Below are positions 1,617 through 25,603 of a stretch of DNA of 35,558 nt, piece after piece. Source of the stretch: an uncultured Candidatus Saccharibacteria bacterium (lineage in GTDB: Bacteria; Patescibacteriota; Minisyncoccia; Phycocordibacterales; JAKFXT01); contig CAYLPX010000003.1 in the NCBI GenBank assembly GCA_964385825.1, forward strand, positions 1-35,558. The letters run 5' to 3'. A program made the translations under genes and the position numbers. The notes below the pieces were generated by a model. The model ran no database searches, was not told the origin of the DNA, and worked only from the letters and a program-made list of their open reading frames with translations. Position 1 is the first letter of the stretch. Each line of letters starts with the position of its first letter.

Positions 1617-3872
1617 CTATTTCGCTACCGCAACTGCTTCATCAAATTTAACGGAAAGAAGTTTAGAATACCCTTCGGATCCCATCGTTACCCCATAAAG
1701 AATCCCTGCCCGACTCATGGTCTCACGGTTGTGAGTAATAACGATTAATTGGCTATACTTAGCCAAATTTTCAATCATATCACCGTATTTTCGAGAATTA
1801 GCTTCATCAAGTGCCGCATCAGTTTCATCCAATATGATAAATGGAGGTGGATTTACTTGAGAAATTGCAAACAAAAGGGCAATTGAGGTAAGTGCACGCT
1901 CCCCTCCTGAAAGCATGGAAAGCCCCTTAACCCTTTTATTCGGCAATGACACGTTAATATCGACACCATCTTCAGTTTCAGTATCTTCTTCCTCGCTCCC
2001 CTCTCCATCTAACTCAGCAAATTCATCCTTATTTTTACGCTTAATTTTCTTTTCTGCGAGTACAAAAAGTGAAGCAGAGCCGCCACCAAACATAAGGGTA
2101 AAAAACTTTCCAAACTCGATGTTTATCTTCTCGATTCCATTTTTAAATTCAATTTCAAGTTTAGTTTGTAGTTCAGTAATAAGTCCGAGCAATGTCTCCT
2201 TAGCGGCTGACAAATCAGCAATTTCTCGTGCCAAAAACTGATCACGCTCCAAGACCTCGTCATACTCCTTTTTAACCTCCTCACCCCCTGCTCCACCTGC
2301 TTCCTCAAGGCGAATTTTCATCTTTTCGAGTCTTTTACGCCGAGTCTCCTGCTCAAGACGAGGTTCGCCCAGGACTTCATCACCTAAACTGTCGTACCGA
2401 ATGGCCGCGAGCCCAACAAGTGCCTGCGCTTCACTAAGTTCAGCTTTAAAAGCTGCTTCTTCCCTCTCTAGCTGCTCTTCTTCACTTTTTAACTGAAAAA
2501 GGATTGCATTAAGCTCTGTACGACGATTCATCATGGCAAAAAGCTCGCGTTCAGCCAGACGCCCACGTGAATTTTCCTCCTCGCGCATCTTACGAAAAGC
2601 CTCATAAGCCTCCCTTTTCTTGCGTACTTCAGCCACCGCTTCATCAAGCTCCTTGGCATACTGATGACGATCTGCTTCTAACTTTTTTAAATCATGTTCA
2701 ATTTCACTACTCGCATCGTGGGCAACACCAACATTCTTTTTTTCAGAAATAAAATGTGCGAGGGAATCAACTATGCGTACAATAATTGCTCGCAAAAACC
2801 CCGGATTATCATTTTCGGACCCGCTTTCCCCCACCTTACGTATGTCTTCATGCAATGCCTCGAGGTCTGCCAATGAAACTGACGCCGTAAACGAGCTTGT
2901 TGCTTGATGTTTTGCCCGCTCAAATGCACGAGTAAGTGCCATTTTCTCACCTTCCAATCGACTAAGTTTCCCCTGCACAAGCCTTTCTGCTTCTTCAGCA
3001 CTTTGAAGCTCTTTTTCAATAATTAAAATCTCATGTCCCTTAGTATCACTCCCTTCAGTTTCTTCTATCAACTTTTTAGCCTGCTCTATATTTTTTTCGA
3101 CATGATGAAACTCGGCTAAGGGCCCATTTCGCCGTTCTGCTCCTGCTTTTTTTGCAGTATGTAGGTACTTTTCTTCACGTGCCAAATACTCACGATATAG
3201 TGCTACAAGTTCCTCGCGCAAACTCTCAACTCGCTTCACTTTTTCAACCTGCTTTTCTAGGAATTTTATATGCGGCGCAATTTCTCGTCGCAGCGACTCA
3301 ACCTGCTTAATGTTTTCAGCAGTTTTTTCCAGTTTTCGCTCACTTTCTTCACGTTTATACTGATACACCTTAAGCCCAAGAGCATCTTCAATCATGCTCC
3401 GACGCTCCCGGATTGACGCATTCAAGATACGATCAGCTTCACCCTGTGAAATAATGTGATGGCCCGAAGCCCCAATGTTTGCAGAAGCTAAAAGTTCTAC
3501 AATATCGCGGAGTCGCACCTGCGACCCATTAATCAAATACTCGTTCACCGAATCACGATGGACGGCACGCTCCAATACCACTTCATCAAAATCAATATTG
3601 AAAATTCGACTCGTATTATCAAACGTAAGCCGGACGCTAGCCCGATTCATTTTTGGCAAATTTTTACCCCCATTGAAAATGAGATCTTCTCCGCGCTTCC
3701 CGCGCATGCTTTTCATAGACTGCTCTCCCAGAACAAAGCGAAAAGCTTCAGCTACATTGCTTTTACCTGAACCATTTGGACCAACAATAGAAACTATGGG
3801 GGCGCTAAACTCGAGATCACCCTTCTTGGCGAACGACTTAAATCCATTGATCTCAAGGCGCTTTAAATACAT
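1617..3872 (-). CDS. smc: SMC-family chromosome segregation ATPase, unusually short (751 aa)
   Basis: N-terminal head: MYLKRLEINGFKSFA...GPNGSGKSN (Walker A). C-terminal head: LSGGERALTSIALLFA (signature motif) and FIILDETDAALD (Walker B). The middle is heptad-rich and charged. The rnc-smc gene order is conserved. Confidence 0.85.
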   Translation of the reverse strand: MYLKRLEINGFKSFAKKGDLEFSAPIVSIVGPNGSGKSNVAEAFRFVLGEQSMKSMRGKRGEDLIFNGGKNLPKMNRASVRLTFDNTSRIFNIDFDEVVLERAVHRDSVNEYLINGSQVRLRDIVELLASANIGASGHHIISQGEADRILNASIRERRSMIEDALGLKVYQYKREESERKLEKTAENIKQVESLRREIAPHIKFLEKQVEKVKRVESLREELVALYREYLAREEKYLHTAKKAGAERRNGPLAEFHHVEKNIEQAKKLIEETEGSDTKGHEILIIEKELQSAEEAERLVQGKLSRLEGEKMALTRAFERAKHQATSSFTASVSLADLEALHEDIRKVGESGSENDNPGFLRAIIVRIVDSLAHFISEKKNVGVAHDASSEIEHDLKKLEADRHQYAKELDEAVAEVRKKREAYEAFRKMREEENSRGRLAERELFAMMNRRTELNAILFQLKSEEEQLEREEAAFKAELSEAQALVGLAAIRYDSLGDEVLGEPRLEQETRRKRLEKMKIRLEEAGGAGGEEVKKEYDEVLERDQFLAREIADLSAAKETLLGLITELQTKLEIEFKNGIEKINIEFGKFFTLMFGGGSASLFVLAEKKIKRKNKDEFAELDGEGSEEEDTETEDGVDINVSLPNKRVKGLSMLSGGERALTSIALLFAISQVNPPPFIILDETDAALDEANSRKYGDMIENLAKYSQLIVITHNRETMSRAGILYGVTMGSEGYSKLLSVKFDEAVAVAK

Positions 3873-4082
3873 AAATTGTGGCTAATTATAACAAATTAAG
3901 CCGACTATACCTACTTTCAAAATAAAAAATTGGGTAAAGGTTCTGTCCAAAAAGCTTCGCTTTTTGGACAAGACAGGCACTTTGTCTTCCTCGCTCAAAT
4001 ATAAAATTATGAGCACAAAGCAACCAAAAACCATTCCCCTTCGCGCGAATATTCCCGCGTACATGCGGGGAAGAACTTGTTT

Positions 4083-6181: not shown

Positions 6182-6209
6182 AGTATACAAAATATAGGGT
6201 TTTTTGCAA
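6182..6209 (-). promoter_or_regulatory. Sigma70-like promoter of rpmF
   Basis: Minus strand: TTGCAA, 16-nt spacer, TATACT. The -10 ends 7 nt before the ATG and there is no SD. Confidence 0.55.
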
Positions 6210-6229
6210 GATTCCCTGAATAAAGAGGT

Positions 6230-6259
6230 AAAAAAAACGCGCCCCCAGTGGTGGGGGCG
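6230..6259 (-). terminator. Intrinsic terminator of the high-GC 94-aa ORF
   Basis: Perfect 8-bp stem CGCCCCCA/TGGGGGCG (6240-6247 / 6252-6259) with a 4-nt loop, followed on the minus strand by T8 (6230-6237). Confidence 0.75.
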
Positions 6260-6264
6260 GTCGA

Positions 6265-6549
6265 CTACTTGCCGGCCAGGATTTTCGTGGCCGCCGCAAC
6301 AGTAGTGGTACTCATGGCCTCATTGACCTTTGCGAAGGAAATCCCGCAAGGAGGCTCAAAACTTGAGCAAAAACCAGGCCTAGGATCCCTCTTCTTGATT
6401 CGCCTTTCACAGGTCTCGCTGCCATCCTTACTGCAAAGTGGGCAAAGGATCTTGTTAGGAAGTGGCCCGCGTAATGCTTTTTGCAGCTCGTAGGGGTAAA
6501 GCCTGTAGTATTCCTTGGCCCCGTCCCCGTTGGGTTCCTTGTGTGGCAT
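6265..6549 (-). CDS. Orphan Cys-rich small protein (94 aa) in high-GC cassette A
   Basis: GGAGGC SD 8 nt upstream of the ATG and its own terminator. Five Cys (CPLC..C..C..C). Line 6241-6300 counts 70% GC. I recognise no family. Confidence 0.55.
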   Translation of the reverse strand: MPHKEPNGDGAKEYYRLYPYELQKALRGPLPNKILCPLCSKDGSETCERRIKKRDPRPGFCSSFEPPCGISFAKVNEAMSTTTVAAATKILAGK

Positions 6550-6645
6550 TTCTACTGCCTCCGGTTTTTAAGAACAGCACCATTTTGCGCTGGTGATTTG
6601 GCGCCCGCCTTAATTCTTACCTGGCGATAAGGACCAACTATACCA

Positions 6646-7263
6646 CTATTTTGCCAAAAAGCTAGTACAGAAGCTCCTTCGGTGGATAACTGAAGGCCCA
6701 TACTTTTTAAGAGCCGCTCTATGCTCCGCTGTGCCATACCCTTTATGTTTTTGGAATCCATATGAGGTATATTTTACAGACTCCCTTACCATCCTCTTAT
6801 CACGCGAAACTTTGGCCACAATTGAAGCGAGTGCTATTACTAACTCCTTTTCATCCCCCTTTATAATCGTTTTCTGGTGCCTATATTCACTCGGTGCGCG
6901 CAATGACCCATCAAGTCGTATTTCACTCTTCAGGGGGCTAATTTGAAGCTTTTGGAGCCCCTTTTCTATACAACTTCTTATGGCTTTTGAAATACCTTTT
7001 GCATCTATGTACTTAGCACTTTTGTATACCACGACGTACTCTAATACCCCCTCTTTTTTAAGCTTTTTTATTTTTTGAAGCCACACCTCTCTCCCCTTTT
7101 CAGATAGTTTTTTAGAATCCTTCACTTCCCCGAAAACCTTAAACACCAAGTGTTTAAGGTTTTCGGGGAAACATACAATCCCAACAGCAACAGGACCAGC
7201 TAGTGGACCCCTTCCCACTTCATCAACCCCAACTAACATCCGTTTTATCTGCTTTTTTGCCAT
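6646..7263 (-). CDS. rnhB: Ribonuclease HII
   Basis: VGVDEVGRGPLAGPVAVG catalytic motif; typical length of 205 aa. Confidence 0.9.
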   Translation of the reverse strand: MAKKQIKRMLVGVDEVGRGPLAGPVAVGIVCFPENLKHLVFKVFGEVKDSKKLSEKGREVWLQKIKKLKKEGVLEYVVVYKSAKYIDAKGISKAIRSCIEKGLQKLQISPLKSEIRLDGSLRAPSEYRHQKTIIKGDEKELVIALASIVAKVSRDKRMVRESVKYTSYGFQKHKGYGTAEHRAALKKYGPSVIHRRSFCTSFLAK

Positions 7264-12105: not shown

Positions 12106-12153
12106 AAAACAACAAAATCCCCGGAAGCTTCGCTTCCGGGGATTTTGTTGTTT
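12106..12153. terminator. Bidirectional intrinsic terminator between the convergent thrS and LPYTG-protein genes
   Basis: Perfect long palindrome AAAACAACAAAATCCCCGGAAGC-TTC-GCTTCCGGGGATTTTGTTGTTT, with A/T runs on both sides. Confidence 0.8.
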
Positions 12154-14224
12154 ACGCAAAGACTGGAACCAGTACCTTTGAGGAAAGTTCTTTCTCCTCC
12201 TTTATACGCTCTACAGCGAGCAAGAACGCATACACATCAGCCTCTAGCATATGAAGCTTCATAAGGAAGTTCTGTGCCTTCTTTTCTTCTTTGCGCATAA
12301 GCAAATCCACATAGGAACTAGCAAGTGAACAATAAGTATCAGCAAGAAGTTTCTTAACCTTAGCGAGCGTCAAAATAGCTACCATATCCTCAGCAAGCTC
12401 ACTCTTCATAACGAGAATAGCGCTGGTGAGTAAGCTGTGGGCAACAGCACTGTCTCCTTCAGCAATATTGTAGATGAGTTCTGCAGCATCTTCCTTAAGC
12501 AGCGCGCCCTCACGGCGAGCATAAGCAACAAGCTTCTCAAGAATATTGGTTGGTATAGCTGTAACAAGTGGCAACACTACTTCAGGAGCTTGTGGTGAAC
12601 TCACAACGATTTCCCGCTCTCGTGCCAACGTTTGAACCTTTCCTGTAAACTTCTTGCGAAGCACGCTCAAGATGAGCACATACTTGGCGGTAAATGCGCG
12701 AAGAGGTGCAAAATCCTGCCCATATACGGAAACATAGGCGAGGGTCATACTTACCAATAGGAGGGCGAGTACGAACAGTATCGCAACTATCATGTCGCCA
12801 ATACCGGTATACGGAAGCTGGTTAAGATAAAGTCCAGCATACGGAGTAGACGCAAGGTACACAGAAGGATTCACCCCGCCTCCACTTGAAGTTACTGTTA
12901 CATTAGGAACTGGTGATCCACCTCCGCCCCCGCCGCCTCCACCACCTCCTCCGCCAGAACCTGAATTTACAGAAAGTGAAAGTGCCCCAGTGCCTGTGCC
13001 ACAATTATTAGTTGCAGAGAAATTAAGTACATATGAACCAATCGTGCTGACAGTTCCAGAAATAACACCCGTACTGGTGCTTACAGAAAGACCTGCTGGC
13101 AAACTTGATGCTGCGAAGGAGGTTGGATTATTGGTTGCAGTAATAGTGTAAGTAAACGGAGTATCAACTACCACATTAGCTGAAGTACCACTTGTAATAA
13201 CTGGTACGCCAGGAATACAAGGTCCACCCACAGGTACGATAACGATAGTGAGAGTCTGTGCTCCAGATCCACATGCGTTAGTTGCCGTAATAGTCACCGT
13301 ATAAGTTCCAGCTGTTGTTGGAGTACCACTAATTGTGGCACCAGAGAAAGTAAGTCCTGGAGGAAGTGATCCTGCGGTGAAAGTAATAGGGGCTGTTCCA
13401 GATCCGCTTATAGTGTACGAGAAAGCAGTGCCCACAACACCATTAGCAGAAGCTGTAGAAGCAACAGTAACTGCTACACAAGGAGTTGAAGTTGGAGTAG
13501 TTGTTCCAGGAGGCACTATCACCGCTGGTGGAACACTAGCATCAGAATTATTTGAGTTATGAATAAGCGGGATAGCGAGCAGTGCAACCCACCATGGGAA
13601 AGCGTCTTCCTGTGTTCCACCTCCAATATCTACACCAGTCGTATTATCACCACCTCCGATATCAATACCGTTTGTATTATTTCCACCTCCAATGTCTATA
13701 CCATTTGTATTATCCCCTCCACCAATATCTGAAGTTGAAACTGGCTGTATATTACTAGTTGTTACTACATTATTCCCTCCACCAATATCTTCTCCCCACA
13801 TGGTATTTGGCCCATAAAAATTTGAACCATTATCAGAAGAAGTATCTCCTCCTCCAATATTATCCCCCCAAAAACTAGTATTAGCCGTCGTGTTGTTATA
13901 AGAACCTGCATAATCCATATAGTCATCATATGAAGGAAGAGTGATAGGTGGAGGTGCTATCTCCATCTGAGCTGGAAAAATATTTCCACCCACACCTTCC
14001 CCTGAAAGATCTATTGGGGTATCTACATTATCAAAATTAAAATACTCTTCATCGTCAGCTTTTACATTTGTTACAGAATCTAGGGTTGCAAGTTGAGGCG
14101 TCACTATAAGTGAGGTTGGCGCAAAAAGTGTCGTTATGAGAAATAGCACGAAAAGCCCACGAACGAACATACTCGTTTTGGTTTTATTATTCTTTTTTAT
14201 ATTCATGATATTTTTCATATTCAT
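12152..14224 (-). CDS. Surface protein with DIGGG repeats, two Ig-like domains, a poly-Gly linker, an LPYTG motif plus TM segment, and a long cytoplasmic tail
   Basis: N-terminal anchor/signal (GLFVLFLITTLFAP) and DIGGG(D/N)NT repeats. Two Ig-like repeats have the TFTAGSLPPGLTFSGATISGTPT / SFAASSLPAGLSVSTSTGVISGTV pattern. A G13 tract is followed by LNQLPYTG (aa 470-474), the hydrophobic helix IGDMIVAILFVLALLLVSMTLAYV, and about 190 further helical residues. Confidence 0.75.
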   Translation of the reverse strand: MNMKNIMNIKKNNKTKTSMFVRGLFVLFLITTLFAPTSLIVTPQLATLDSVTNVKADDEEYFNFDNVDTPIDLSGEGVGGNIFPAQMEIAPPPITLPSYDDYMDYAGSYNNTTANTSFWGDNIGGGDTSSDNGSNFYGPNTMWGEDIGGGNNVVTTSNIQPVSTSDIGGGDNTNGIDIGGGNNTNGIDIGGGDNTTGVDIGGGTQEDAFPWWVALLAIPLIHNSNNSDASVPPAVIVPPGTTTPTSTPCVAVTVASTASANGVVGTAFSYTISGSGTAPITFTAGSLPPGLTFSGATISGTPTTAGTYTVTITATNACGSGAQTLTIVIVPVGGPCIPGVPVITSGTSANVVVDTPFTYTITATNNPTSFAASSLPAGLSVSTSTGVISGTVSTIGSYVLNFSATNNCGTGTGALSLSVNSGSGGGGGGGGGGGGGSPVPNVTVTSSGGGVNPSVYLASTPYAGLYLNQLPYTGIGDMIVAILFVLALLLVSMTLAYVSVYGQDFAPLRAFTAKYVLILSVLRKKFTGKVQTLAREREIVVSSPQAPEVVLPLVTAIPTNILEKLVAYARREGALLKEDAAELIYNIAEGDSAVAHSLLTSAILVMKSELAEDMVAILTLAKVKKLLADTYCSLASSYVDLLMRKEEKKAQNFLMKLHMLEADVYAFLLAVERIKEEKELSSKVLVPVFA
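13617..13735 (-). repeat. 33-nt tandem coding repeats (3.5 copies) encoding DIGGG(D/N)NTNGI
   Basis: Units at 13617-13649, 13650-13682 and 13683-13715, plus a partial fourth. Diverged copies of ccTCCaccaATATC lie near 13783 and 13849. Confidence 0.8.
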
Positions 14225-14285
14225 TTTTTCGCTAACAGTGCTGTAAAAAAATCGTGGTCTGTAATTACTAGCATAAAATGGGTCA

Positions 14286-14310
14286 GGAGGAGGAACCGAA
14301 GTTCCCCTCC
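14286..14310 (-). terminator. Hairpin with a C(UUCG)G tetraloop downstream of the high-GC lipoprotein gene
   Basis: Minus strand: GGAGGGGAAC-TTCG-GTTCCTCCTCC, a 10-bp stem with one bulge. The weak T-run means terminator function is uncertain. Confidence 0.35.
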
Positions 14311-14323
14311 CTTCCCGAACGAA

Positions 14324-15685
14324 TCACCAGCTCCGCATTGCGGTTTGCGCCGAAGGGCGAGTTACGGCATGGAAATGCCGATGGCATTCCCCCTGCGCCA
14401 AGTCCGGCGGCCGCATTTCACCCACCGTCATCCGCATGGTCGGCTTCCCGGATGCCTTGGGCGGAGACATGAGGTCGCCCTCATACACCGCTTCGAACCA
14501 ACTGGAGAACGCCGATTGCGGAACCACCATCGGCAGATCTTTGCCTTCCCAGCCGTAGGTGCCGAAGTTTTGCCAGCCGTTTTGCTGCTGACTGTGCATC
14601 AGGAGCTTTAGGTTGGGATCGGCCGGCGCATATCGGATCGCACCTGCCTCATACGCCTGCCGGAACTTCGCTCCGAGCTGGCGCGAGACCGACGCTGACT
14701 GAAATCCGCTCTCCCGAGCGGTGAGGTCAAGCACCTGCTGGCGCAATTCGGGCGGCAACGAGTTGCCATCCCAGATATGCGCATGCAGGGTCAGTGCGGT
14801 ACAACCGGCCGGTGCAACCACCGGCAAAACCGGCTGTTGCTGCACCAACTTCGGCGGCAATTCCGCCGCTTTGACTGGCGCCTTGGGGATGCAGATCTCG
14901 AGGATCAATTCCCCTGGCGCGCAGTTGCGCTGGAAGTAGCCGCCGAATTGCGTACGGGCCGTGTTGTTGTAGGACATGGCATACTTTGCAGTATGCGCCG
15001 CCGTGCACTTCACAGTGCGAAAGGTGTTCTTGCTGAAAAATTCCAGCAAGGCCACCTGCTCCGTCCGCCCTTCGGCGGTTGGAACCGGCATGCCGTTCGC
15101 ACGGAGTTCCTGCGCGAATGCCTTGAGGTCTTCCGGGAGAAGCCTCTTGTCGCCGACCTTGAGCGCCTCCAGGAACTGGGGGAACGTCAAGGCGGTATTC
15201 TTCTTGAAGAAGAAGGCATGTTGCGCCTTCGGCAGCGCGAGTTTCACCCCGCGCTGCTTCAGTTGCTCCACCTGCTCCAGCACGTTACCGCACCAGAGAG
15301 AGATGACCCCATCCCAGTCGCAGTTGTTTTGCAACGCCGCGATTTGAGTCGGATTGGTCACCTGGCCGGCGGCCGTTGCGGCCGCCGGGGCAGGAGCTGC
15401 TGCAGCCGGCTTGGAAGCCGATGCGGCAGGTGCCGAAGCTTGCGCTACGGCTGCGGGTGCAGCGGCCGGTGCGGCCGCTGTCGAAGCCGGAGCCGACGCT
15501 TTCGCACGCGGATCCGGCTTGCAAGGAACCCTTGCAGGCGCCCCACCCCCGATCGTACGAGTATTGCTGTCGCACATGCCATCCGCCGAAGCGGTTGGCT
15601 CACCGAAGACCCCCTTCATGAAGGAACCTCCAGCACATCCCGTCAGGGCAAATGCCAAGACGGTTACTGCAACGCGAGTGTACAT
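14324..15685 (-). CDS. Orphan lipoprotein with an Ala/Pro-rich linker (about 453 aa) in high-GC cassette C
   Basis: Internal start MYTRVAVTVLAFALTGCAG carries a lipobox (L-T-G-C); the ORF-track start at 15748 is probably too far upstream. The linker reads ASAPASTAAAPAAAPAAVAQASAPAAS.... Lines count 67% GC (14401-14460) and 80% GC (15361-15420). I recognise no family for the C-terminal two-thirds. Confidence 0.6.
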   Translation of the reverse strand: MYTRVAVTVLAFALTGCAGGSFMKGVFGEPTASADGMCDSNTRTIGGGAPARVPCKPDPRAKASAPASTAAAPAAAPAAVAQASAPAASASKPAAAAPAPAAATAAGQVTNPTQIAALQNNCDWDGVISLWCGNVLEQVEQLKQRGVKLALPKAQHAFFFKKNTALTFPQFLEALKVGDKRLLPEDLKAFAQELRANGMPVPTAEGRTEQVALLEFFSKNTFRTVKCTAAHTAKYAMSYNNTARTQFGGYFQRNCAPGELILEICIPKAPVKAAELPPKLVQQQPVLPVVAPAGCTALTLHAHIWDGNSLPPELRQQVLDLTARESGFQSASVSRQLGAKFRQAYEAGAIRYAPADPNLKLLMHSQQQNGWQNFGTYGWEGKDLPMVVPQSAFSSWFEAVYEGDLMSPPKASGKPTMRMTVGEMRPPDLAQGECHRHFHAVTRPSAQTAMRSW

Positions 15686-15814
15686 GACTGAACCCTTTCT
15701 AGTGGTTGAGTTTGATTCGTTACTTATACTTCCCGAGCGCGCGGACATCTACTACAATGCACGCTTGCGTTTGAGAAGTACAAGATTTCTCAAAGAACAG
15801 CTCCCCACCTTACG

Positions 15815-15856
15815 GTGAAGATTGAGAGAGGGACAAGTCCTTCTCTCAATCTTCAC
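15815..15856. other. 18-bp-stem hairpin between sortase and cassette C
   Basis: GTGAAGATTGAGAGAGGG / CCTTCTCTCAATCTTCAC with one G-T wobble and loop ACAAGT. No flanking T-run, so it is either an atypical terminator for the sortase gene or a cassette boundary element. Confidence 0.5.
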
Positions 15857-15876
15857 AACAAGAAATTTTCAAATTT

Positions 15877-16560
15877 CTAAAGAGCTTGTGCGCTCTTGTA
15901 ACTAGCGGTCACGATATACCGCTCTTCTTTGGCCCCAAAACTATCACAAGTTGAAAGTATGAGCTCGTGATCACGAGAAGCCACATTGATATACGCGAGA
16001 TCAGCGGTAGTGTGCACTACCTTTTCAACAACATAGGTATAGCTACGCTTGTTCCCATAGAGCACAACCGTATCCCCCTTCACCATGGAACGTAGCCCAT
16101 TAAAGGCTTTGTAGTTTTGATTGTGTACCACAGGCAAGAATGAGGAGTGGCCGAATATAAAGATATTCTGAGTACTCTCTAGGTCTCCCGAACCTGGATA
16201 TCGAACTGCCCCATAGAGTAGCGCATCGTCTAGCACTTTACCATCCCGACTCTCTGGGTTCAGAATCTTAGCATCAAGCCCTACTCGAGTAGAAACGATG
16301 CGCACTGGTTCGGTGTACTCCCCGGTACGATCAGTTGGTATACCTGATGTAGGTTCAGCCCCATTCATACTCACCCGATCGTCATGAACAAACAGTGAGA
16401 AAATCACGTTATTCACTTCACGGATGGAAAGTGGCACAGCATTGAAGCCAGCCGAAATCACAAAGAGCAAAACAAAGATAAAAAATGTTCGCTTCAAAAA
16501 GCGCGCCATTTTCTCGTCTTTATGTGCCTCGCTCGAGACTTTTTGCTCTGGTATCTCCAT
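15877..16560 (-). CDS. Sortase-family transpeptidase
   Basis: N-terminal TM (FFIFVLLFVISAGF), catalytic His context IFIFGHSSF, Cys motif LILSTC (TLxTC type) and a downstream Arg (EERYIV). Confidence 0.8.
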   Translation of the reverse strand: MEIPEQKVSSEAHKDEKMARFLKRTFFIFVLLFVISAGFNAVPLSIREVNNVIFSLFVHDDRVSMNGAEPTSGIPTDRTGEYTEPVRIVSTRVGLDAKILNPESRDGKVLDDALLYGAVRYPGSGDLESTQNIFIFGHSSFLPVVHNQNYKAFNGLRSMVKGDTVVLYGNKRSYTYVVEKVVHTTADLAYINVASRDHELILSTCDSFGAKEERYIVTASYKSAQAL

Positions 16561-16706
16561 AGCTTTTGCTTAAAAGTGTCAATGTAGGCAGAAATCCACC
16601 TCTTACTGACTAAAGCGTATGTTAGCATAAAAAAAGTACAGTGTCAATATTGGCGCTTTTTGCTAATTATGTCCTTGTTTTAGCCTATTGACAGCCATAG
16701 TTATAT

Positions 16707-17912
16707 ATGATATATACATATGGTAACTATATATTTTGTATGCAGACAACATTTCCACACAACCTGCCAACCGGCTCGGAAGATAAGCCAACTCTTAAGG
16801 AGAAGGCTCTTGCTCATGCCCCTATAGCGACCAAGGCACTCGCTTCTATTGGTCTTGCTGTCGTCCTTATACTCCTTCTTGTCCTTGGTGCTGTCACCGT
16901 GAAGTATGCTGGCGTTGCGCTAAAGAGCTCTTACTCTGCAGCGGTATCACTTTCCTCTAAAATATTTACCACATCCCCAATCACTACTTCGCCTACCACT
17001 ACCACCAAACCCGAATCAGCCGGTACAGTGAACTCTGGCGCTTCTTTCACCCTCTCATGGAACCACCTCAAGAAAACTGCTGCTGGTTCATACTCACTCT
17101 CCTACCCTTGCGTTGATAGCCTTTCTATTAAGGCCACAACTCCAGAGAACGGAACCGAGACCGTGTACTGCAACAAAGAATTCCTCTTCATTAACCACAA
17201 CAATGAGCTTGGACTTACTGTTCGCTCTGAGAAGTACCACTCAGTAGACCTCCCTATTACCATCCTCTTTACTAAGAATGGTGAGAAGACGGCTTCTGTT
17301 TCTGGAGTGATCTATGTCACTGTAGTGAACAATGCTATCGCTAGTTCAACCGACTCTACTGACACTAATAGCCAGAATGAAACTATCGTTGCGAGCGTGA
17401 GTACCACAACCACAACTAAACCAACCACCAATACAGGAAACAACACTGGTGGTACGACTATAAAAAATGGTGAACAGGCTGGTAACACTACCTCTAACAC
17501 CTACACCGGCGGTACTACAGTTGGTTCTGGTGTTAACAACCCGAATGGTAAGCCTGACCTACGTCCCGTTATTATGGAAACTGGTTACCTAGATAGTTCT
17601 AACGCGTTCGTACGTTCAGACACTCCTTCTCGCGCTAACCGTGTGGCAGTACGCTTCCGCATTGAAAACATTGGGGACAAGGTTTCAGGTCCATTCCGCT
17701 TTAATGCATACCTTCCTACCTATCCTTCGCAGACATTCAACTCTGAAGTGCAGCTCCCTATTTACCCAGGCGACCGCATTGAGTATGTACTCGGCTTTGA
17801 TCGCGCTATTAACGGTGTACAACAGTTCCACGTACAAGTAGATGGTGGTAACGATATTGTTGAGTCCAATGAGAATAACAACGACGGCTACGTAAACATC
17901 AACATTCAGTAA
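16707..17912 (+). CDS. Membrane-anchored Thr-rich surface protein with a C-terminal CARDB-like domain
   Basis: TM segment ALASIGLAVVLILLLVLGAV and T-rich linkers. The C-terminus DLRPV...RFRIENIGDKVSGPFRFNAYLP...ESNENNNDGYVNI resembles CARDB. The likely true start is the ATG at 16740 (MQTTFPH), downstream of TTGACA-17-TATATA at 16688-16716. Confidence 0.7.
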   Translation: MIYTYGNYIFCMQTTFPHNLPTGSEDKPTLKEKALAHAPIATKALASIGLAVVLILLLVLGAVTVKYAGVALKSSYSAAVSLSSKIFTTSPITTSPTTTTKPESAGTVNSGASFTLSWNHLKKTAAGSYSLSYPCVDSLSIKATTPENGTETVYCNKEFLFINHNNELGLTVRSEKYHSVDLPITILFTKNGEKTASVSGVIYVTVVNNAIASSTDSTDTNSQNETIVASVSTTTTTKPTTNTGNNTGGTTIKNGEQAGNTTSNTYTGGTTVGSGVNNPNGKPDLRPVIMETGYLDSSNAFVRSDTPSRANRVAVRFRIENIGDKVSGPFRFNAYLPTYPSQTFNSEVQLPIYPGDRIEYVLGFDRAINGVQQFHVQVDGGNDIVESNENNNDGYVNINIQ

Positions 17913-17933
17913 TTAAAACAAGACCTAAACAAC

Positions 17934-17971
17934 AAAACCCCCGAGCACTTCGTGCTCGGGGGTTTTGGTTT
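17934..17971. terminator. Bidirectional intrinsic terminator between convergent surface-protein genes
   Basis: AAAACCCCCGAGCAC-TTC-GTGCTCGGGGGTTTTGGTTTTT. It has the same architecture as the 12106-12153 terminator. Confidence 0.8.
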
Positions 17972-20305
17972 TTAGAAACAAGGATCTACTCGTACCGAAG
18001 CCAACTTCCTAAAATTAAAACTAGCAAAATTATGTGACAGACACGGGTTTTCTATCGCCCCCTGTGGACTTCCAAGAATAGTCACTCCCAGGTTTTCTGC
18101 AATGCTCCGCACATAATGCCCATCCGTTCCCCAGTTAGCACTTCCTCCCCCATCACCCATAGCTCCCAGCCGTGTCATGGTTGCAAAGTTTCTTGAAGCC
18201 CCGCCACACCAACCTTCGCACTCAGAGACAGTAGGTGTGCGGTCCAAAAGGATATCTTCCACCCCCTTGTGATATACAAGCTTCAAACCTTCTCCTCCAC
18301 TAAGTAAACCTGGACCGAAAGAAGTAATAAGATCAGCAGTAATACCAGGTACTGCATCGTCGCTATCTCTCTCAATAAGGTAGTACTGATGTGGGTCAAT
18401 CTGTGAAGCAAAGTTAATTAAAAGGGGGCTATCTTCAGAACTAAGTGTCACGTGCGAAAGGTCAATGCGAGTATTGGTATTATTGTAAAGCTCCAACCAT
18501 TGATTATTCTCTGATACACCTGTCCCAGGCCACGCCACTTCACTGATAACCACTGGCTGCTTTACGTATGTGACACCAACCGAACTTGAAGTCGCAATAT
18601 TGCCGCTATTGTCCATAGCCGTTCCTACTATTTCATGTTGTCCAATAGCTAATGCTAACTCAGCCTCAGTACTACTCCCAGAACCGAGGAGTACACCATC
18701 AACCCAAACACTGAAACTAGAAGTATCAGTGGCTACAGAAGAAAGAAGTAATGTTGTGGTACTTACCGGTAACACACAAGTATCATGCGCCAATGAATAT
18801 GCACAATCAGGAACCGAGATATTTATGTCAGGTGGAGTAATATCTACAGCTGGGGCATCATCAGTTGTAGTAGATACTTCTAATTCAACTGGCACTGCTT
18901 GAGATGCTGGAGCTAAACTTACACTATCTCCTCCCCCACCAAATCCAGGAAAAATTGTAATCGGTGCACTTGGCAAAGAATTAGTTTGAGCTTTACTTTG
19001 TATTTCCGGTTTAATAGTAAGAGTATTTTGCACTATTGATGCCGTGGTTTGTTGGGAATTGGAAGAAGTATTATCAATAAAGGCGAAGATGGGGCCAACG
19101 GCATTACTTGTCTTTTTTTGTGTAAACGTAACACTATTTACTCCAGCTTGTGCCATTTGTCCAGCTTCTTTTGTATTAAAACTGATAACACTACCTATAT
19201 TAAATATGCTCTGAGTAACGAATGCTAAAGTTTGTGAAGTTGTTTCTCTAATGTTTGCCACTGATTCCCAAATTCCTTTTTTTACATTAAAATCCCAGGT
19301 GTACTGAATCCAGTATTTTGGCTTTTCTAAAAAGGCAGCATCCGCAATTTTCTGCTCTCCAGCCGCTTTTCTCGCCTCCTCCTCTTTGACTAAAAACTCT
19401 TTTTCCTCGTATACTTTCTTCGCTTTCTCACCCTCTTCCTTAAACAAACTTATAACCCCTGCCCCCGTCGGAATTATCTGCCTCGACAACCGATCAAAAT
19501 ATTCTGATAAAACAGAATCGTCATTCTGATTTAAAAGTAATCTAGTATAAATCCCATCTTTATCTTTACGAAGGATATATAACTTTGCCTTCTTTCCAGT
19601 AATAGTGTCGACTCCGTAGGCATAGTCATCTATGGTTTCCCCTACCTCTGGTAATCTATAAACAAAAATTGTTTGTTTAATAGTATCCTTACTAAAAAAG
19701 GAATTATTAGAATATTTTGCCAGAAAATCAAAATATTCTCCCAAACTTTCAAATCTCTTTTCTTTCTCCCCTTCACTATAATACTGATACCCGAGCCCTG
19801 ACATAGTTTGCCTATCTTTATGTTGCATTGCCCAATACTCGTAAGGACTTTGTTCCCAACTTAGAAATGGAGGGTGTGGATCATTCCTTGTATGATCTGG
19901 GACTCCCATATCTTCTATGAGGTGTAGCACATGGCCTAATATTAAATAAGCTTCCTCAGTATCCCCCCTAGCATAAGCTTCTATTGCCTGTTTCCAAGAA
20001 AAGGAGTTCGCTACAACCTCTCCGCTCACCCATTCCTTAGCAGTCCTATAGCCTTGTAAACCTATCCCCCGAACAGGGTCGTAGAAATGGTTTAATACTC
20101 GACTCTCTGGTTTATAATCCTCGTCTATCGATCCCTGTACTATTTTTTCCTTTTCTATATCAGTTATCTTGTCACCATGTGAATAATTATAAAAAGAAAC
20201 TATTTCTTGCGAGAACCCGGCATGAGTAGTAGGGGCATCATATGCAAAACTTAAAACGGGAGTGAAAAATAGAATTGTGATTAAAGTTCTAAAGAACTTT
20301 TTCAT
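17972..20305 (-). CDS. Secreted zinc-dependent phospholipase C-like protein with a C-terminal lamin-tail (LTD) domain
   Basis: Signal peptide MKKFFRTLITILFFTPVLSFA; the start at 20305 lies 2 nt after the upstream stop. Zn-PLC motifs NHFYDP and LGHVLHLIEDMGVPDH match the SHFYDP / LHYLGDVNQPMH pattern of Bacillus PC-PLC. LTD-like segment VVISEVAWPGTG...NQWLELYNNTN. Confidence 0.7.
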   Translation of the reverse strand: MKKFFRTLITILFFTPVLSFAYDAPTTHAGFSQEIVSFYNYSHGDKITDIEKEKIVQGSIDEDYKPESRVLNHFYDPVRGIGLQGYRTAKEWVSGEVVANSFSWKQAIEAYARGDTEEAYLILGHVLHLIEDMGVPDHTRNDPHPPFLSWEQSPYEYWAMQHKDRQTMSGLGYQYYSEGEKEKRFESLGEYFDFLAKYSNNSFFSKDTIKQTIFVYRLPEVGETIDDYAYGVDTITGKKAKLYILRKDKDGIYTRLLLNQNDDSVLSEYFDRLSRQIIPTGAGVISLFKEEGEKAKKVYEEKEFLVKEEEARKAAGEQKIADAAFLEKPKYWIQYTWDFNVKKGIWESVANIRETTSQTLAFVTQSIFNIGSVISFNTKEAGQMAQAGVNSVTFTQKKTSNAVGPIFAFIDNTSSNSQQTTASIVQNTLTIKPEIQSKAQTNSLPSAPITIFPGFGGGGDSVSLAPASQAVPVELEVSTTTDDAPAVDITPPDINISVPDCAYSLAHDTCVLPVSTTTLLLSSVATDTSSFSVWVDGVLLGSGSSTEAELALAIGQHEIVGTAMDNSGNIATSSSVGVTYVKQPVVISEVAWPGTGVSENNQWLELYNNTNTRIDLSHVTLSSEDSPLLINFASQIDPHQYYLIERDSDDAVPGITADLITSFGPGLLSGGEGLKLVYHKGVEDILLDRTPTVSECEGWCGGASRNFATMTRLGAMGDGGGSANWGTDGHYVRSIAENLGVTILGSPQGAIENPCLSHNFASFNFRKLASVRVDPCF

Positions 20306-24540: not shown

Positions 24541-25047
24541 ATGAAATACTTCTGGTTTCTCTTTGCCCTCTGCCTTGCCGGAGCGTGCTGCGCACAAACG
24601 CCGAAAATGGTGGGGTGGCACCTGTTCCCCATCGAGACCGAAGATGGTGGGGTGGAGCCCCGGTTTACGGGAGTGATAGACACCGCATGGTGCGACATCA
24701 CCATCAAAGCAACCAACCATTTGGTCTTCTCGGCGCTTGTAGCCGAAGAGAATCAACCGCGGTACCAGGAGGGAGGTACCATACAACACAAGGAGATCTC
24801 GATAAAAGGCGTTCCGGGGGTACTCACTATCCTCACCAATAACGCCGTCAACGTCGAGGTCGGAGAGGGCAAATGGTTGAGTACTGATGCGCCACCACGA
24901 CCATTATTCCAAGAATACTGCGTGGATGCAGTGAGGCGCTTGCCAGGCGCCGTTCAGGCCCTTTTCGGGGGAACCTTTGGGATCGGGAGACCCCTTACCG
25001 AAATACCACAGGCATTGATACTTCGGGTTCAAGAAGGAGCGGACTGA
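24541..25047 (+). CDS. Orphan secreted protein (168 aa), high-GC cassette E ORF1
   Basis: GGGAGGAGG SD directly upstream of the ATG at 24541. Signal peptide MKYFWFLFALCLAGACCAQ. Line 24601-24660 counts 63% GC. Confidence 0.55.
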   Translation: MKYFWFLFALCLAGACCAQTPKMVGWHLFPIETEDGGVEPRFTGVIDTAWCDITIKATNHLVFSALVAEENQPRYQEGGTIQHKEISIKGVPGVLTILTNNAVNVEVGEGKWLSTDAPPRPLFQEYCVDAVRRLPGAVQALFGGTFGIGRPLTEIPQALILRVQEGAD

Positions 25048-25048
25048 A

Positions 25049-25177
25049 ATGAAAACCCTCCAAATCATCGCCGGCACAGTTGCCGGCGATCGGTGGCAAA
25101 CAGCTGCCGTAAGCCGTATCCCGATCTTCATTCTTCTCATTCTTGTTTTCACCCTCGCCTATGTGGCGGGAGTATGA
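25049..25177 (+). CDS. Micro-ORF (42 aa) encoding a C-terminal TM helix, translationally coupled to cassette E ORF1
   Basis: Hand-translated: MKTLQIIAGTVAGDRWQTAAVSRIPIFILLILVFTLAYVAGV. Its ATG lies 1 nt after the ORF1 TGA, with an AAGGAG SD 9 nt upstream and a terminator immediately after. It is below the 60-aa track threshold. Confidence 0.4.
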   Translation: MKTLQIIAGTVAGDRWQTAAVSRIPIFILLILVFTLAYVAGV

Positions 25178-25184
25178 AGACAGG

Positions 25185-25214
25185 CGGCGCCCACCCGGGG
25201 CGCCGTTTTCTTTT
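25185..25214 (+). terminator. Intrinsic terminator after cassette E ORF1-ORF2
   Basis: 8-bp GC stem CGGCGCCC/GGGCGCCG, 5-nt loop, then TTTTCTTTT. Confidence 0.7.
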
Positions 25215-25267
25215 GCAGGAATAATAAAAATATAGTAAAACCTAAGTAGACAACTTGGGAGCCGAAC

Positions 25268-25591
25268 ATGAACCTCCACGCCATCAATCGCATCCTAGCC
25301 ATGCTGGCAGTCGCCGCGGCGTCTGCTGCTTGGTACCACAAGACGTACAACCAAATCGATTACGCAGTACAGGTTTGGGAACACAACAAGGCGGACGATG
25401 AGGAGTACCGCAGATACGCCTACATCAAGGAGTTCGAGTTTGGCACCTGCTATGCCAACGAGGATGGCGCCCTCCTCCATGGAAGGATTTTGGGCTTTGC
25501 CGACATGCAGAGGCTTGACCTTTGCATGAAAGATTTCCGAGAAAACGGGCGCGCTGAACTTTCGATCGCCCTTGATGCTGACCCGCCGTGA
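25268..25591 (+). CDS. Orphan protein with an N-terminal hydrophobic segment (107 aa), high-GC cassette E ORF3
   Basis: GGGAG SD 6 nt upstream. N-terminus INRILAMLAVAAASAAW. A TATAGT -10-like box at 25233-25238. The terminator hairpin contains the stop codon. Confidence 0.5.
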   Translation: MNLHAINRILAMLAVAAASAAWYHKTYNQIDYAVQVWEHNKADDEEYRRYAYIKEFEFGTCYANEDGALLHGRILGFADMQRLDLCMKDFRENGRAELSIALDADPP

Positions 25592-25603
25592 GGCGGGTTT
25601 TTT
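25582..25603 (+). terminator. Intrinsic terminator after cassette E ORF3
   Basis: CCCGCC-GTGA-GGCGGG followed by T6. The stop TGA sits in the loop. Confidence 0.75.

Follow-up and report, generated by a model that had tools for sequence, protein, structure and literature searches.

We analyzed a 35,558-nucleotide stretch of DNA from an uncultured Candidatus Saccharibacteria bacterium (contig CAYLPX010000003.1; hereafter the window) and focused on one of its genes, a GC-rich open reading frame (ORF) on the minus strand (14324..15685) that encodes a putative lipoprotein. The gene occupies what we call the slot, that is the space between a sortase gene and the gene of its He_PIG [LV]PYTG substrate. 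A first-pass annotation of the window had taken it for a cassette that was inserted from a high-GC proteobacterium or actinobacterium and split a sortase/substrate pair. Our analysis indicates instead that the gene is very likely a resident of the slot, and the locus is more unusual than this first reading proposed. The coding sequence (CDS) carries an excess of local folding that is very probably a real property of the sequence, and we lean towards RNA-level selection for hairpins as the main cause of the composition of this gene and of the other slot genes.

To place the gene we looked for homologues of its product and for their genomic neighborhoods. The region of the protein that follows its Ala/Pro-rich linker retrieved two relatives from 5.8 billion protein clusters, and an exhaustive HMMER search of 1.84 billion cluster representatives gave eight matches at E<=1e-3, one of which (P0009) is of low complexity and was judged spurious. 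A profile search with the full-length alignment returned at least 8000 candidates and was swamped by the linker. Scanning species-representative genomes added L012, labelled Candidatus Saccharibacteria, whose ThrRS is 88% identical to that of the window and whose arrangement is the same; a scan of metagenomes added one further short contig only. The homologues P0002, P0003, P0006, P0007, P0010 and that of L012 each lie directly after a sortase gene. The He_PIG gene comes next in P0002, P0007, P0010 and L012, the contigs of L003 and L014 break off in a partial ORF of no assigned identity, and P0005 is a fragment with a He_PIG-like N-terminus after it. On contigs that reach further, the genes follow the order of the window, namely LTD, CARDB (minus), sortase, slot gene, He_PIG, ThrRS (minus), DnaE (minus) and RNase HII. 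P0008 is the sole homologue not seen in the slot, and its 2.1-kb contig shows no sortase. This contig (L015, ENA ERZ1758447 NODE_11333, 2140 nucleotides (nt)) is GC-rich throughout (0.59) and carries an ORF with SPPPP repeats downstream on the opposite strand; P0008 itself has 248 amino acids (aa), a Sec signal and the C-terminal domain only.

In identity matrices the values fall in the same order for all genes compared, ranging over 43-88% for ThrRS, 39-71% for the sortase and 27-63% for the lipoprotein; for the deep lineages the values are 43-55% for ThrRS and 39-59% for the sortase, and the lipoprotein declines in steps of 63%, 43-50% and 27-33%. On a tree of sortases the lipoprotein family fills the slot uniformly throughout the window's clade, and empty slots are confined to other, deeper clades. 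Searches that covered about 15 billion proteins gave no homologue in any plausible high-GC donor. Inside the window we saw no direct repeats flanking the gene, no template repeat/variable repeat (TR/VR) pair and no mobility genes, integrase or transposase, its neighbours being the sortase, He_PIG, CARDB, ThrRS and DnaE genes. The gene thus sits in the same slot in all homologues bar P0008, down to 43% ThrRS identity, and the empty-site comparison that had been set beforehand as a way of refuting the insertion shows it to be ancestral for the window's clade. The foreign-cassette interpretation is therefore refuted, both as an insertion and as an import from Proteobacteria or Actinobacteria, since no donor homologue exists in the searches above, the gene is GC-rich in all lineages and its substitutions show no decay from GC to AT; the lipoprotein interpretation is supported. 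The best reading is a vertically inherited yet fast-evolving lipoprotein gene in a slot of Saccharibacteria-like Patescibacteria.

The slot is not restricted to this family. We retrieved 77 loci from species-representative Patescibacteria genomes with a sortase alignment and measured the distance from the sortase stop codon to the first protein with an [LVI]PxT[GAS] motif. In the 50 loci with a substrate ORF called this distance is bimodal, either at most 340 bp (empty slots) or 700-3200 bp (occupied slots). Occupied slots hold one to three ORFs, 28 of 34 with a signal peptide or lipobox by a crude heuristic. In the 27 occupied loci, 33 of the 34 slot ORFs exceed the median of their flanks in GC content at third codon positions (GC3), by a median of 0.19 and a maximum of 0.41 (Wilcoxon 8e-10), and 25 of the 34 exceed every other ORF in their own locus. 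A Pfam scan of 39 slot proteins yielded no credible domain, its single match being a spurious coiled-coil. Besides the window's family, with 12 linked members, the slot proteins make up about six smaller families as well as singletons; hhalign ties only a few of the families to one another, and occupancy is clade-structured on the sortase tree. Because the GC enrichment runs across unrelated slot families, the anomaly is a property of the position and not of one gene family.

The GC enrichment of the window's family is conserved and is accompanied by a bias in substitution. In eight lineages the lipoprotein gene has a GC3 of 0.54-0.75, against 0.18-0.47 in its flanks. Synonymous sites are saturated at such divergence, so that a single old import should have ameliorated. 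We polarised changes at four-fold degenerate sites by three-taxon parsimony in the clade L006/L008/L021, the only one for which close relatives were available. In the neighbours, GC-to-AT changes occurred at 0.262 and AT-to-GC changes at 0.109 per site, which corresponds to an equilibrium GC content at four-fold sites (GC4) of 0.29, with 0.24 observed. In the lipoprotein gene the rates were 0.219 and 0.375 per site, with an equilibrium GC4 of 0.63 and an observed value of 0.72. AT-to-GC change is thus 3.4 times that of the neighbours (Fisher p = 2e-5). Counted over all sites there were 98 GC-to-AT and 72 AT-to-GC changes, compared with a GC-to-AT share of 0.69 expected from the neighbour rates (p = 0.002), and a smaller outgroup-rooted count gave 21:19. 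This excess of AT-to-GC change, with no GC-to-AT decay, indicates that the high GC content is sustained in place.

We then folded the coding RNA. Over nine consecutive 150-nt windows of the lipoprotein CDS the z scores against dinucleotide shuffles were -1.3, -3.6, -2.2, -3.5, -6.5, -3.9, -2.6, -0.8 and -1.9. Their mean is -2.9, compared with -0.6 for He_PIG and +0.1 for ThrRS, and 11 control windows from the He_PIG, ThrRS and sortase genes gave -1.8 to +1.1. Excess local folding extends over the full length of the CDS (14324..15685, minus strand), which can be considered a structured-RNA unit as a whole. The same holds for other occupied slots: in 20 loci the mean z was -2.06 for the slot, -0.57 for the sortase, -0.67 for the substrate and -0.32 for other genes, and in all 20 loci the slot lay below the other genes (p = 2e-6). 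A further comparison permutes synonymous codons and leaves protein sequence, codon usage and GC content all fixed. With this approach the window's lipoprotein gene has a z of -7.6 (native -475 versus -399 kcal/mol), and the slot genes of L006, L012, L001 and L039 reach -7.8, -7.9, -7.6 and -11.2; the remaining ones lie between -2.5 and -6.9, with the exception of L014 (-0.4). Neighbouring genes gave +0.2 to -1.9, GC-rich housekeeping ORFs of Patescibacteria with 55-63% GC gave +1.35 to -1.6 and GC-rich islands outside the slot gave -0.9 to -1.4. The latter two controls rule out a GC artefact behind the folding signal. The two slot genes of L023 have an ordinary GC content of 0.44 yet codon-permutation z scores of -6.9 and -4.9, which indicates that structure and GC content are separable and that structure is the more constant trait of the slot. 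This L023 locus (2770-3967, plus strand) belongs to the window's sortase clade, and its slot ORFs are both secreted, with 179 aa and about 218 aa.

The structure encoded in the arrangement of codons is asymmetric between strands. Structure is stronger on the sense than on the antisense strand in 17 of 20 slot genes (p = 6e-4). A census of hairpins in 18 slot genes (16,965 nt of CDS) found 115 stems of at least 7 bp on the sense strand, versus 47 +- 4 in codon-permuted sequences and 69 on the antisense strand. For tetraloops the corresponding numbers were 95, 39 +- 4 and 61. The stable loop classes stand out: there were 20 GNRA loops on the sense strand (1.9 +- 1.3 permuted, 2 antisense) and seven UNCG loops (0.8 +- 0.9 permuted, 0 antisense). 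Individual hairpins predicted by folding in the window's CDS, all on the minus strand, illustrate the pattern. The hairpin AGGUGGCCUUGCUGGAA-UUU-UUCAGCAAGAACACCU (15022..15057) encodes LLEFFSK, and its stem is kept in L012 by a paired change, GCUGG/CAGC to GGUGG/CACC (in full CUUGCUGGAA/UUCAGCAAG to CCUGGUGGAA/UUCACCAAG), that alters both codons and changes the protein (L to V and S to T). A hairpin with a GNRA tetraloop, GCAUACU-GCAA-AGUAUGC, lies at 14979..14996, where L012 has a different hairpin that encodes different residues, and a second GNRA hairpin, GCACU-GUGA-AGUGC, lies at 15005-15018. Hairpins at the same position with different sequence recur across lineages, for example CCGCC-GAAG-GGCGG versus CCUUC-UUCG-GAAGG. 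Third positions vary less in paired columns (0.28) than in unpaired ones (0.41). Rfam gave nothing at gathering score in the window except one tRNA, and its matches within 14200-15900 were at chance level, far below gathering score.

These observations would be explained if the mRNA of slot genes were selected for dense, stable local hairpins throughout the coding region, with synonymous codons arranged to base-pair. As stable stems in an AT-rich genome need G-C pairs, all three codon positions and the amino-acid composition would be pulled towards GC. Such selection would account for the AT-to-GC bias, the high GC3 and a protein composition shifted towards Ala, Gly, Pro and Arg. We infer that selection, rather than a mutational process, is the cause. 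As a best guess, the hairpins would shield the transcript from ribonucleases, throttle translation of an exported disulfide-rich protein in the sortase-slot gene-substrate unit, or both; regulation within this unit or an RNA-level function are other candidates, and our confidence in any specific function is low.

Several points weigh against this interpretation. All folding was performed in silico in 150-nt windows. L014 and L003 are GC-rich with weak structure (z of -0.4 and -2.5), and across slot genes z and GC excess are uncorrelated (rho -0.25, not significant); since GC content and structure are separable in this way, selection for structure may not explain all of the GC enrichment. The gap between strands is modest (mean z -2.43 sense, -1.78 antisense), so that much of the signal is Watson-Crick pairing that would also exist as DNA palindromes. 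RNAalifold on the L006 alignment (five sequences, three effective lineages) found 7-8 compensatory pairs of 348 with a consensus that is biased towards conserved columns, and covariation in this shallow alignment is suggestive only. The substitution test is a parsimony count from the single clade L006/L008/L021, which is other than the window's own lineage, and its 'substitutions' may include recombinational imports. As to the protein, lipid anchoring is deduced from a motif, and one automatic gene call (P0001, 431 aa) starts at M23 after a GGAGG, downstream of the lipobox.

Among other explanations, a recombination hotspot with GC-biased gene conversion (gBGC) fares best, and we consider it unlikely as the main cause. 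Here the slot would diversify by recombination with the conserved flanks as homology arms, repair would favor G and C, and the hairpins would be a by-product or unrelated. It fits the rise of AT-to-GC change at four-fold sites with GC-to-AT change unaltered, the precise replacement of the C-terminal domain between conserved flanks (described below), the variation of synonymous divergence (dS) between adjacent genes and the missing correlation between GC excess and structure score. Saccharibacteria are moreover naturally competent (PMC10633639), and a survey of 145 bacterial species found recombination rate and GC content positively correlated within species in 82% of them, with cell-surface genes often highly recombining (PMC11879095). 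The same survey concluded that selection, not gBGC, mainly drives GC content, and reading such correlations as gBGC is debated (PMC11879095). No gBGC effect reported in bacteria comes near a GC3 shift of 0.2-0.4. The structure that codon arrangement produces at fixed GC content (z of -4 to -11), the sense-specific enrichment of GNRA and UNCG loops and the structured slot genes of L023 at normal GC content would all be left unexplained. Recombination-linked GC bias may nevertheless add to the enrichment beside selection for hairpins.

A further step beyond selection for hairpins, which we hold to be rather improbable, is that slot genes are phylum-wide dual-purpose RNAs: mRNAs for hypervariable secreted proteins that are themselves nuclease-resistant, tetraloop-capped structured RNAs with a role beyond coding. 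Such an RNA might last long or be stored as a message in an epibiont poor in ribosomes, it might serve as a scaffold or decoy, or, most radically, it might be a message that survives outside the cell and is used in the GC-rich host. If this were true, such GC-rich islands in genomes of the candidate phyla radiation (CPR) would be RNA-structure islands and not scars of horizontal transfer.

Two further explanations appear improbable to us in equal measure. In the first, recurrent xenologous replacement, the slot would be old and its copies young, replaced repeatedly, as entire genes or as modules, from a pool of GC-rich alleles that circulates among Patescibacteria. The at least seven unrelated orphan families and the singletons found in the slot are consistent with it, as is the exchange of the C-terminal domain between close relatives, the window and L012. 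So is the fact that slot GC3 is roughly 0.6-0.8 whatever the genome GC3 (0.29-0.74; weak correlation, rho 0.40), and high-GC Patescibacteria do exist (L051, L066, L076), some with genomes of 55-62% GC. Against this, lipoprotein similarity tracks that of the flanking genes, family occupancy is clade-structured, the L006/L008/L021 gene diverged in place (83% identity) and kept its GC content, slot genes in high-GC genomes still lie above their own background, and the RNA-structure signal is not accounted for. In the second, the palindromes would arise at the DNA level in a hypermutable locus, through template switching at quasi-palindromes or repair templated by hairpins, with no selection on RNA. 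The CDS does contain many short near-perfect palindromes with 1-4-nt spacers, z is negative on both strands, the rate of nonsynonymous change (dN) is elevated, and paired changes in both arms are the expected product of the template-switch mechanism (described in PMC7202029). A DNA-templated process has however no reason to make the sense strand the more structured one in 17 of 20 genes or to enrich GNRA and UNCG loops 10-fold on the sense strand with two and none on the antisense strand, and for an effect restricted to a single slot throughout a phylum, a mutator specific to this locus would have to exist.

The recently acquired foreign cassette, inserted from a high-GC proteobacterium or actinobacterium such as the host and not yet ameliorated, is highly improbable: it is suggested by three codon positions that all resemble a native gene of a genome of about 62% GC, by the Ala/Pro-rich linker, by the hairpins at both ends and by the wholly GC-rich 2.1-kb contig of P0008 with no visible sortase, and it is contradicted by identical synteny and high GC content at 43-55% ThrRS identity, by the dearth of homologues out of the slot (P0008 only, among about 15 billion proteins) and of credible Pfam domains (0 of 39), by substitution counts near equilibrium that are not dominated by GC-to-AT change, by the missing flanking direct repeats, integrase or transposase, and by GC-rich housekeeping genes that show no codon-arrangement structure.

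The reading frame of the lipoprotein gene is open from 14324 to 15748 on the minus strand, and a start at the ATG at 15685 yields a 453-aa product with a signal peptide that begins MYTRVAVTVLAFALTGC. We favored this start (M1) over M23 because the lipobox is kept in six of seven lineages. The CDS has a GC content of 62% (GC1/2/3 = 0.61/0.53/0.71), and the flanking genes of the window have a GC3 of 0.31-0.46. In 100-nt windows GC content is 0.52-0.74, rising at the start codon and dropping past the 3' hairpin; the gene is thus strongly GC-rich as the first-pass annotation had noticed, in a range slightly lower than the 60-80% that it gave. GC skew is about 0 (-0.22 to +0.15). The first-pass reading of the frame proved correct, since homologues align as protein, the ratio dN/dS is 0.30-0.32 in frame, GC3 exceeds GC1 and GC1 exceeds GC2, and the shadow ORFs show an antisense GC pattern. 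In particular, a plus-strand shadow ORF (14777..15691) was rejected as a real gene on the basis of codon-position GC, protein-level conservation and dN/dS.

The lipobox and the Ala/Pro-rich linker (residues ~56-106) that had been read from the sequence are both present. The predicted lipoprotein signal peptide, MYTRVAVTVLAFALTG followed by the lipobox Cys17 (15635..15685, minus strand, the Cys codon at 15635-15637), reads MYTR-VAVTVLAFA-LTG-C17 and shows, in a pattern check only, a positive n-region, a hydrophobic h-region and the lipobox pattern [LVI][ASTVI][GAS]C. Homologues carry AFGGC, FLGGC, LLAGC or LLSGC, and L014 has a Sec-type signal instead. The protein would thus be lipid-anchored at Cys17 after Sec export and cleavage by signal peptidase II, as judged from its motif; neither Lgt nor LspA was seen among the window ORFs scanned, in which no search was aimed at these genes. 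The signal peptide is followed by an Ala/Pro-rich low-complexity stalk (residues 18-118, 15332..15634), which contains the GC maximum of 0.74 and cannot be aligned between lineages. Then comes a conserved, mostly helical N-domain (residues ~119-268, 14882..15331), delimited from the homologue alignment, with the motifs CDW..SLWCGN, AFFFKK, LLPEDLxAFAQELRANG and CAPGExILExC and five invariant Cys; its best segment is 73% identical to L012 in amino acids, with 73% DNA identity, and AlphaFold2 models it poorly (predicted local distance difference test (pLDDT) 35-84).

The C-terminal module (residues ~293-446, 14348..14809) is modelled as a beta-sandwich with a two-helix insert, bounded by Cys295 and Cys434, with a pLDDT of 80-94 from an eight-sequence alignment. 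It is to this domain that the remote homologues P0005-P0008 and P0010 align. Foldseek comparison of the model with the PDB gave weak generic matches to transthyretin/Ole e 1-like beta-sandwiches (E >= 8e-3) and with viral models (BFVD) no meaningful match (E >= 1e-3 throughout), and with matches so weak and generic we assign the modelled fold to no family. Searched against Pfam, NCBIfam, PDB sequences, PHROGs and PADLOC, the protein gave low-complexity noise at most, in agreement with the earlier view that it belongs to no recognised family. Beyond the lipid-attachment Cys, seven Cys are invariant among the three closest homologues. The C-terminus (...HAVTRPSAQTAMRSW) has no LPxTG-type sortase signal. 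Together these features point to a lipid-anchored, stalked, disulfide-bonded surface lipoprotein, in which the Pro/Ala stalk would keep the helical N-domain and the beta-sandwich C-domain away from the membrane.

The gene evolves fast. Between L006 and L008 its dN is 0.093, versus 0.011-0.030 for the neighbours, and its dN/dS, 0.30-0.32 as mentioned above, reaches 0.4-1.0 in the closest comparisons (0.30-0.97 overall; neighbours 0.03-0.37). Between the window and L012, DNA identity is 70% over CARDB plus sortase and 73% over the N-domain; similarity is absent over the C-domain (14327-14892) and is back exactly at the stop codon (77%). The L012 C-domain is 36% identical to that of L024. This is a domain swap, in which the C-domain would travel as a module from one lineage to another. 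Together with a surface location, such swaps and the relaxed or diversifying evolution of the gene would fit a cell-surface role beside a sortase-anchored adhesin, candidate roles being host contact, phage contact or modulation of the adhesin. A small ORF of GC 0.52 between LTD and CARDB (L006 1686-1979, plus strand), with equivalent 92-aa genes in L007, L008 and L017, has diverged unevenly (60% identity to L008 versus 95% to L021) and may be another fast-evolving small gene of the neighborhood.

The layout of the locus agrees with the earlier placement of the gene between a sortase and an LPYTG protein. Upstream lies the gene of the housekeeping-type sortase (15877..16560, minus strand; 227 aa, PF04203, E 4e-17), whose product has the catalytic motifs FGHSS...LSTC...ER; an orthologue flanks every lipoprotein homologue bar P0008. 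The gene for a CARDB-domain membrane protein (16707..17912, plus strand), identified by domain scan and synteny, is the divergent neighbour that marks the synteny block. The best sigma-70-like promoter of the locus by motif match, TTGACA-17-TAACAT with a TG, lies upstream of the sortase gene (16619..16647, minus strand). No comparable match was found between the sortase, lipoprotein and He_PIG genes, so the three are possibly co-transcribed. Downstream of the lipoprotein gene, on the same strand, comes the He_PIG gene (12152..14224; PF05345, E 5e-20), encoding a 690-aa He_PIG/PKD surface protein that is the presumed sortase substrate. Its intergenic leader (14225..14279) is conserved, with 77% DNA identity to L012 over 14064-14327 and a similar sequence in L001. 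The protein has LPYTG at 12803-12817, then a transmembrane helix and a tail of ~190 aa; [LV]PYTG[ILA]GD and the helix are kept in the He_PIG proteins of L012, L001, L006 and L008. The tail, of ~190-200 aa and conserved in the same four, replaces the usual short charged tail and gives faint NCBIfam matches to clamp-loader regions (RFC / DNA polymerase III gamma-tau).

Two hairpins bracket the lipoprotein gene. The first (15815..15856, minus strand; -29.8 kcal/mol, z -5.25) is an 18-bp stem-loop (15+3 bp) with no T-run, 20 nt past the sortase stop codon, and L012, L001, L006 and L003 also have a strong hairpin of different sequence at this position. The second is the 3' stem-loop GGAGGGGAAC-UUCG-GUUCCUCCUCC (14280..14316, minus strand, stem 14285-14311; -25.1 kcal/mol, z -3.3), with a C(UUCG)G tetraloop; it begins 8 nt past the lipoprotein stop codon, is terminator-like with a weak U-tract and is near-identical in L012. 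Both therefore exist where the first-pass annotation had put them. They are not unusual as it had held: the same style of GC stem and UUCG loop ends the convergent gene pairs at 12107-12154 and 17927-17974. An integron-like cassette was rejected because such terminator-style hairpins are common to ordinary convergent gene ends and no integrase was seen. The two convergent-pair elements are 48-nt bidirectional terminator hairpins that share the design AAACAACAAAAYCCCCG...CUUCG...CGGGGRUUUUG and are 75% identical, which suggests a stereotyped terminator module in this genome.

Outside the locus, a second GC-rich island (24541-25600, plus strand, GC 0.52-0.55) contains a 168-aa secreted ORF (24541-25047), a 42-aa membrane peptide (25050-25178), a terminator, a 107-aa secreted ORF (25268-25591) and another terminator. 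The positional orthologue of the first ORF in L001 (432-941, minus strand) is normal in GC3 (0.38, versus 0.60 in the window), and the island ORFs have no excess RNA structure (codon-permutation z of -1.3 and -0.9). Between the L32 gene (5947-6174, minus strand) and the RNase HII gene (6646-7263, minus strand) a region at ~6200-6600 has a raised GC content of 0.49-0.59. It contains no long ORF, Rfam gives no match there at gathering score, and it possibly represents an RNA gene that has escaped annotation. At 52-459, where the window begins, we found three copies of a direct repeat of ~102 nt with 63-73% identity, spaced by 138-168 nt, within a region whose GC skew is strongly positive (0.47). 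In L003, a gene for IMP cyclohydrolase (2346-3080, plus strand; PF07826) has a GC3 of 0.63 against a background of ~0.26 and a structure z of -1.4. As it is GC-rich with no RNA-structure signal, horizontal transfer is a more ordinary possibility for this gene.

When a GC-rich patch stands in an AT-rich genome it is routinely put down to horizontal transfer, and here such a patch is an old resident whose composition is actively held up. This calls for caution in island-calling in metagenome-assembled genomes (MAGs) of CPR/Patescibacteria. The sortase-slot-LPxTG adhesin locus is conserved and easily located and concentrates orphan, fast-evolving secreted proteins, which makes slot proteins natural candidates for determinants of host recognition or host range in bacteria that live attached to other bacteria. 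If the hairpins are real in vivo, they would represent a so far unrecognised level of control after transcription, or of RNA stability, in organisms whose regulatory repertoires are minimal, and a concrete case of selection on RNA structure reshaping both GC content and protein composition. Because Saccharibacteria are genetically tractable through natural competence (PMC10633639), this hypothesis is directly testable by synonymous recoding.

Our literature searches found neither this locus nor slot genes of high GC content or dense structure described for Patescibacteria; as far as we could find, the magnitude of the structure signal, its confinement to a single slot and its tetraloop signature are undescribed. 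Slot genes resemble ssRNA-phage genomes and genes under mRNA-structure selection in that the native CDS folds more stably than codon-shuffled versions. Known genome-wide effects of mRNA-structure selection are small, a weak tendency of fractions of a standard deviation per gene. Our neighbouring genes and GC-rich controls (z of +1.35 to -1.9) match this weak effect, whereas slot genes reach z scores of -4 to -11 with GNRA and UNCG loops. Values of this magnitude are otherwise associated with structured RNAs or RNA-virus genomes, not with chromosomal mRNAs. Slot genes are also similar to genes adjacent to Gram-positive sortases (pilin and adhesin operons, actinobacterial SafA beside srtA) in their place beside a sortase and its substrate and in their predicted membrane-associated extracytoplasmic product. 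Gram-positive sortase accessory proteins are conserved families with defined motifs; with at least seven unrelated orphan families and many empty slots, a conserved biochemical role in sorting is unlikely here. Like genomic islands and ORFans, the slot gene has atypical composition, no detectable homologues outside the slot and a predicted surface product. Typical ORFans and islands are rich in AT, occur patchily among close relatives and decay in composition, in contrast to the slot gene, which is GC-rich and syntenic across deep lineages and whose substitutions sustain the high GC content.

A diversity-generating retroelement or silent-cassette locus was rejected, as no direct repeat involves 14324-15685 and no reverse transcriptase was seen among the neighbours scanned. 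Motif scans of genome and metagenome collections found one locus per genome or contig, with the reservation that MAGs may collapse repeats. The closest known parallel is vlsE/vls of Borrelia, the antigenic-variation lipoprotein locus of Lyme disease spirochetes, which stays GC-rich in an AT-rich genome: its G+C content, 49.1% versus 28.6% for the chromosome, is conserved across species and has been read as actively maintained (PMC11499132). Both are variable surface lipoprotein genes of conserved high GC content that undergo segmental exchange in a small, AT-rich genome of a host-dependent bacterium. The vls locus has a contiguous array of silent cassettes, whereas neither a second copy of the lipoprotein gene nor a repeat of TR/VR type occurs in the 35.5-kb window or on related contigs. 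The coding strand of vls has a GC skew of 0.52 with G-runs (PMC11499132), in contrast to a skew of about 0 here. The slot protein has no sequence or fold similarity to VlsE, and relative to vls the dense RNA hairpins are the distinctive trait of the slot gene.

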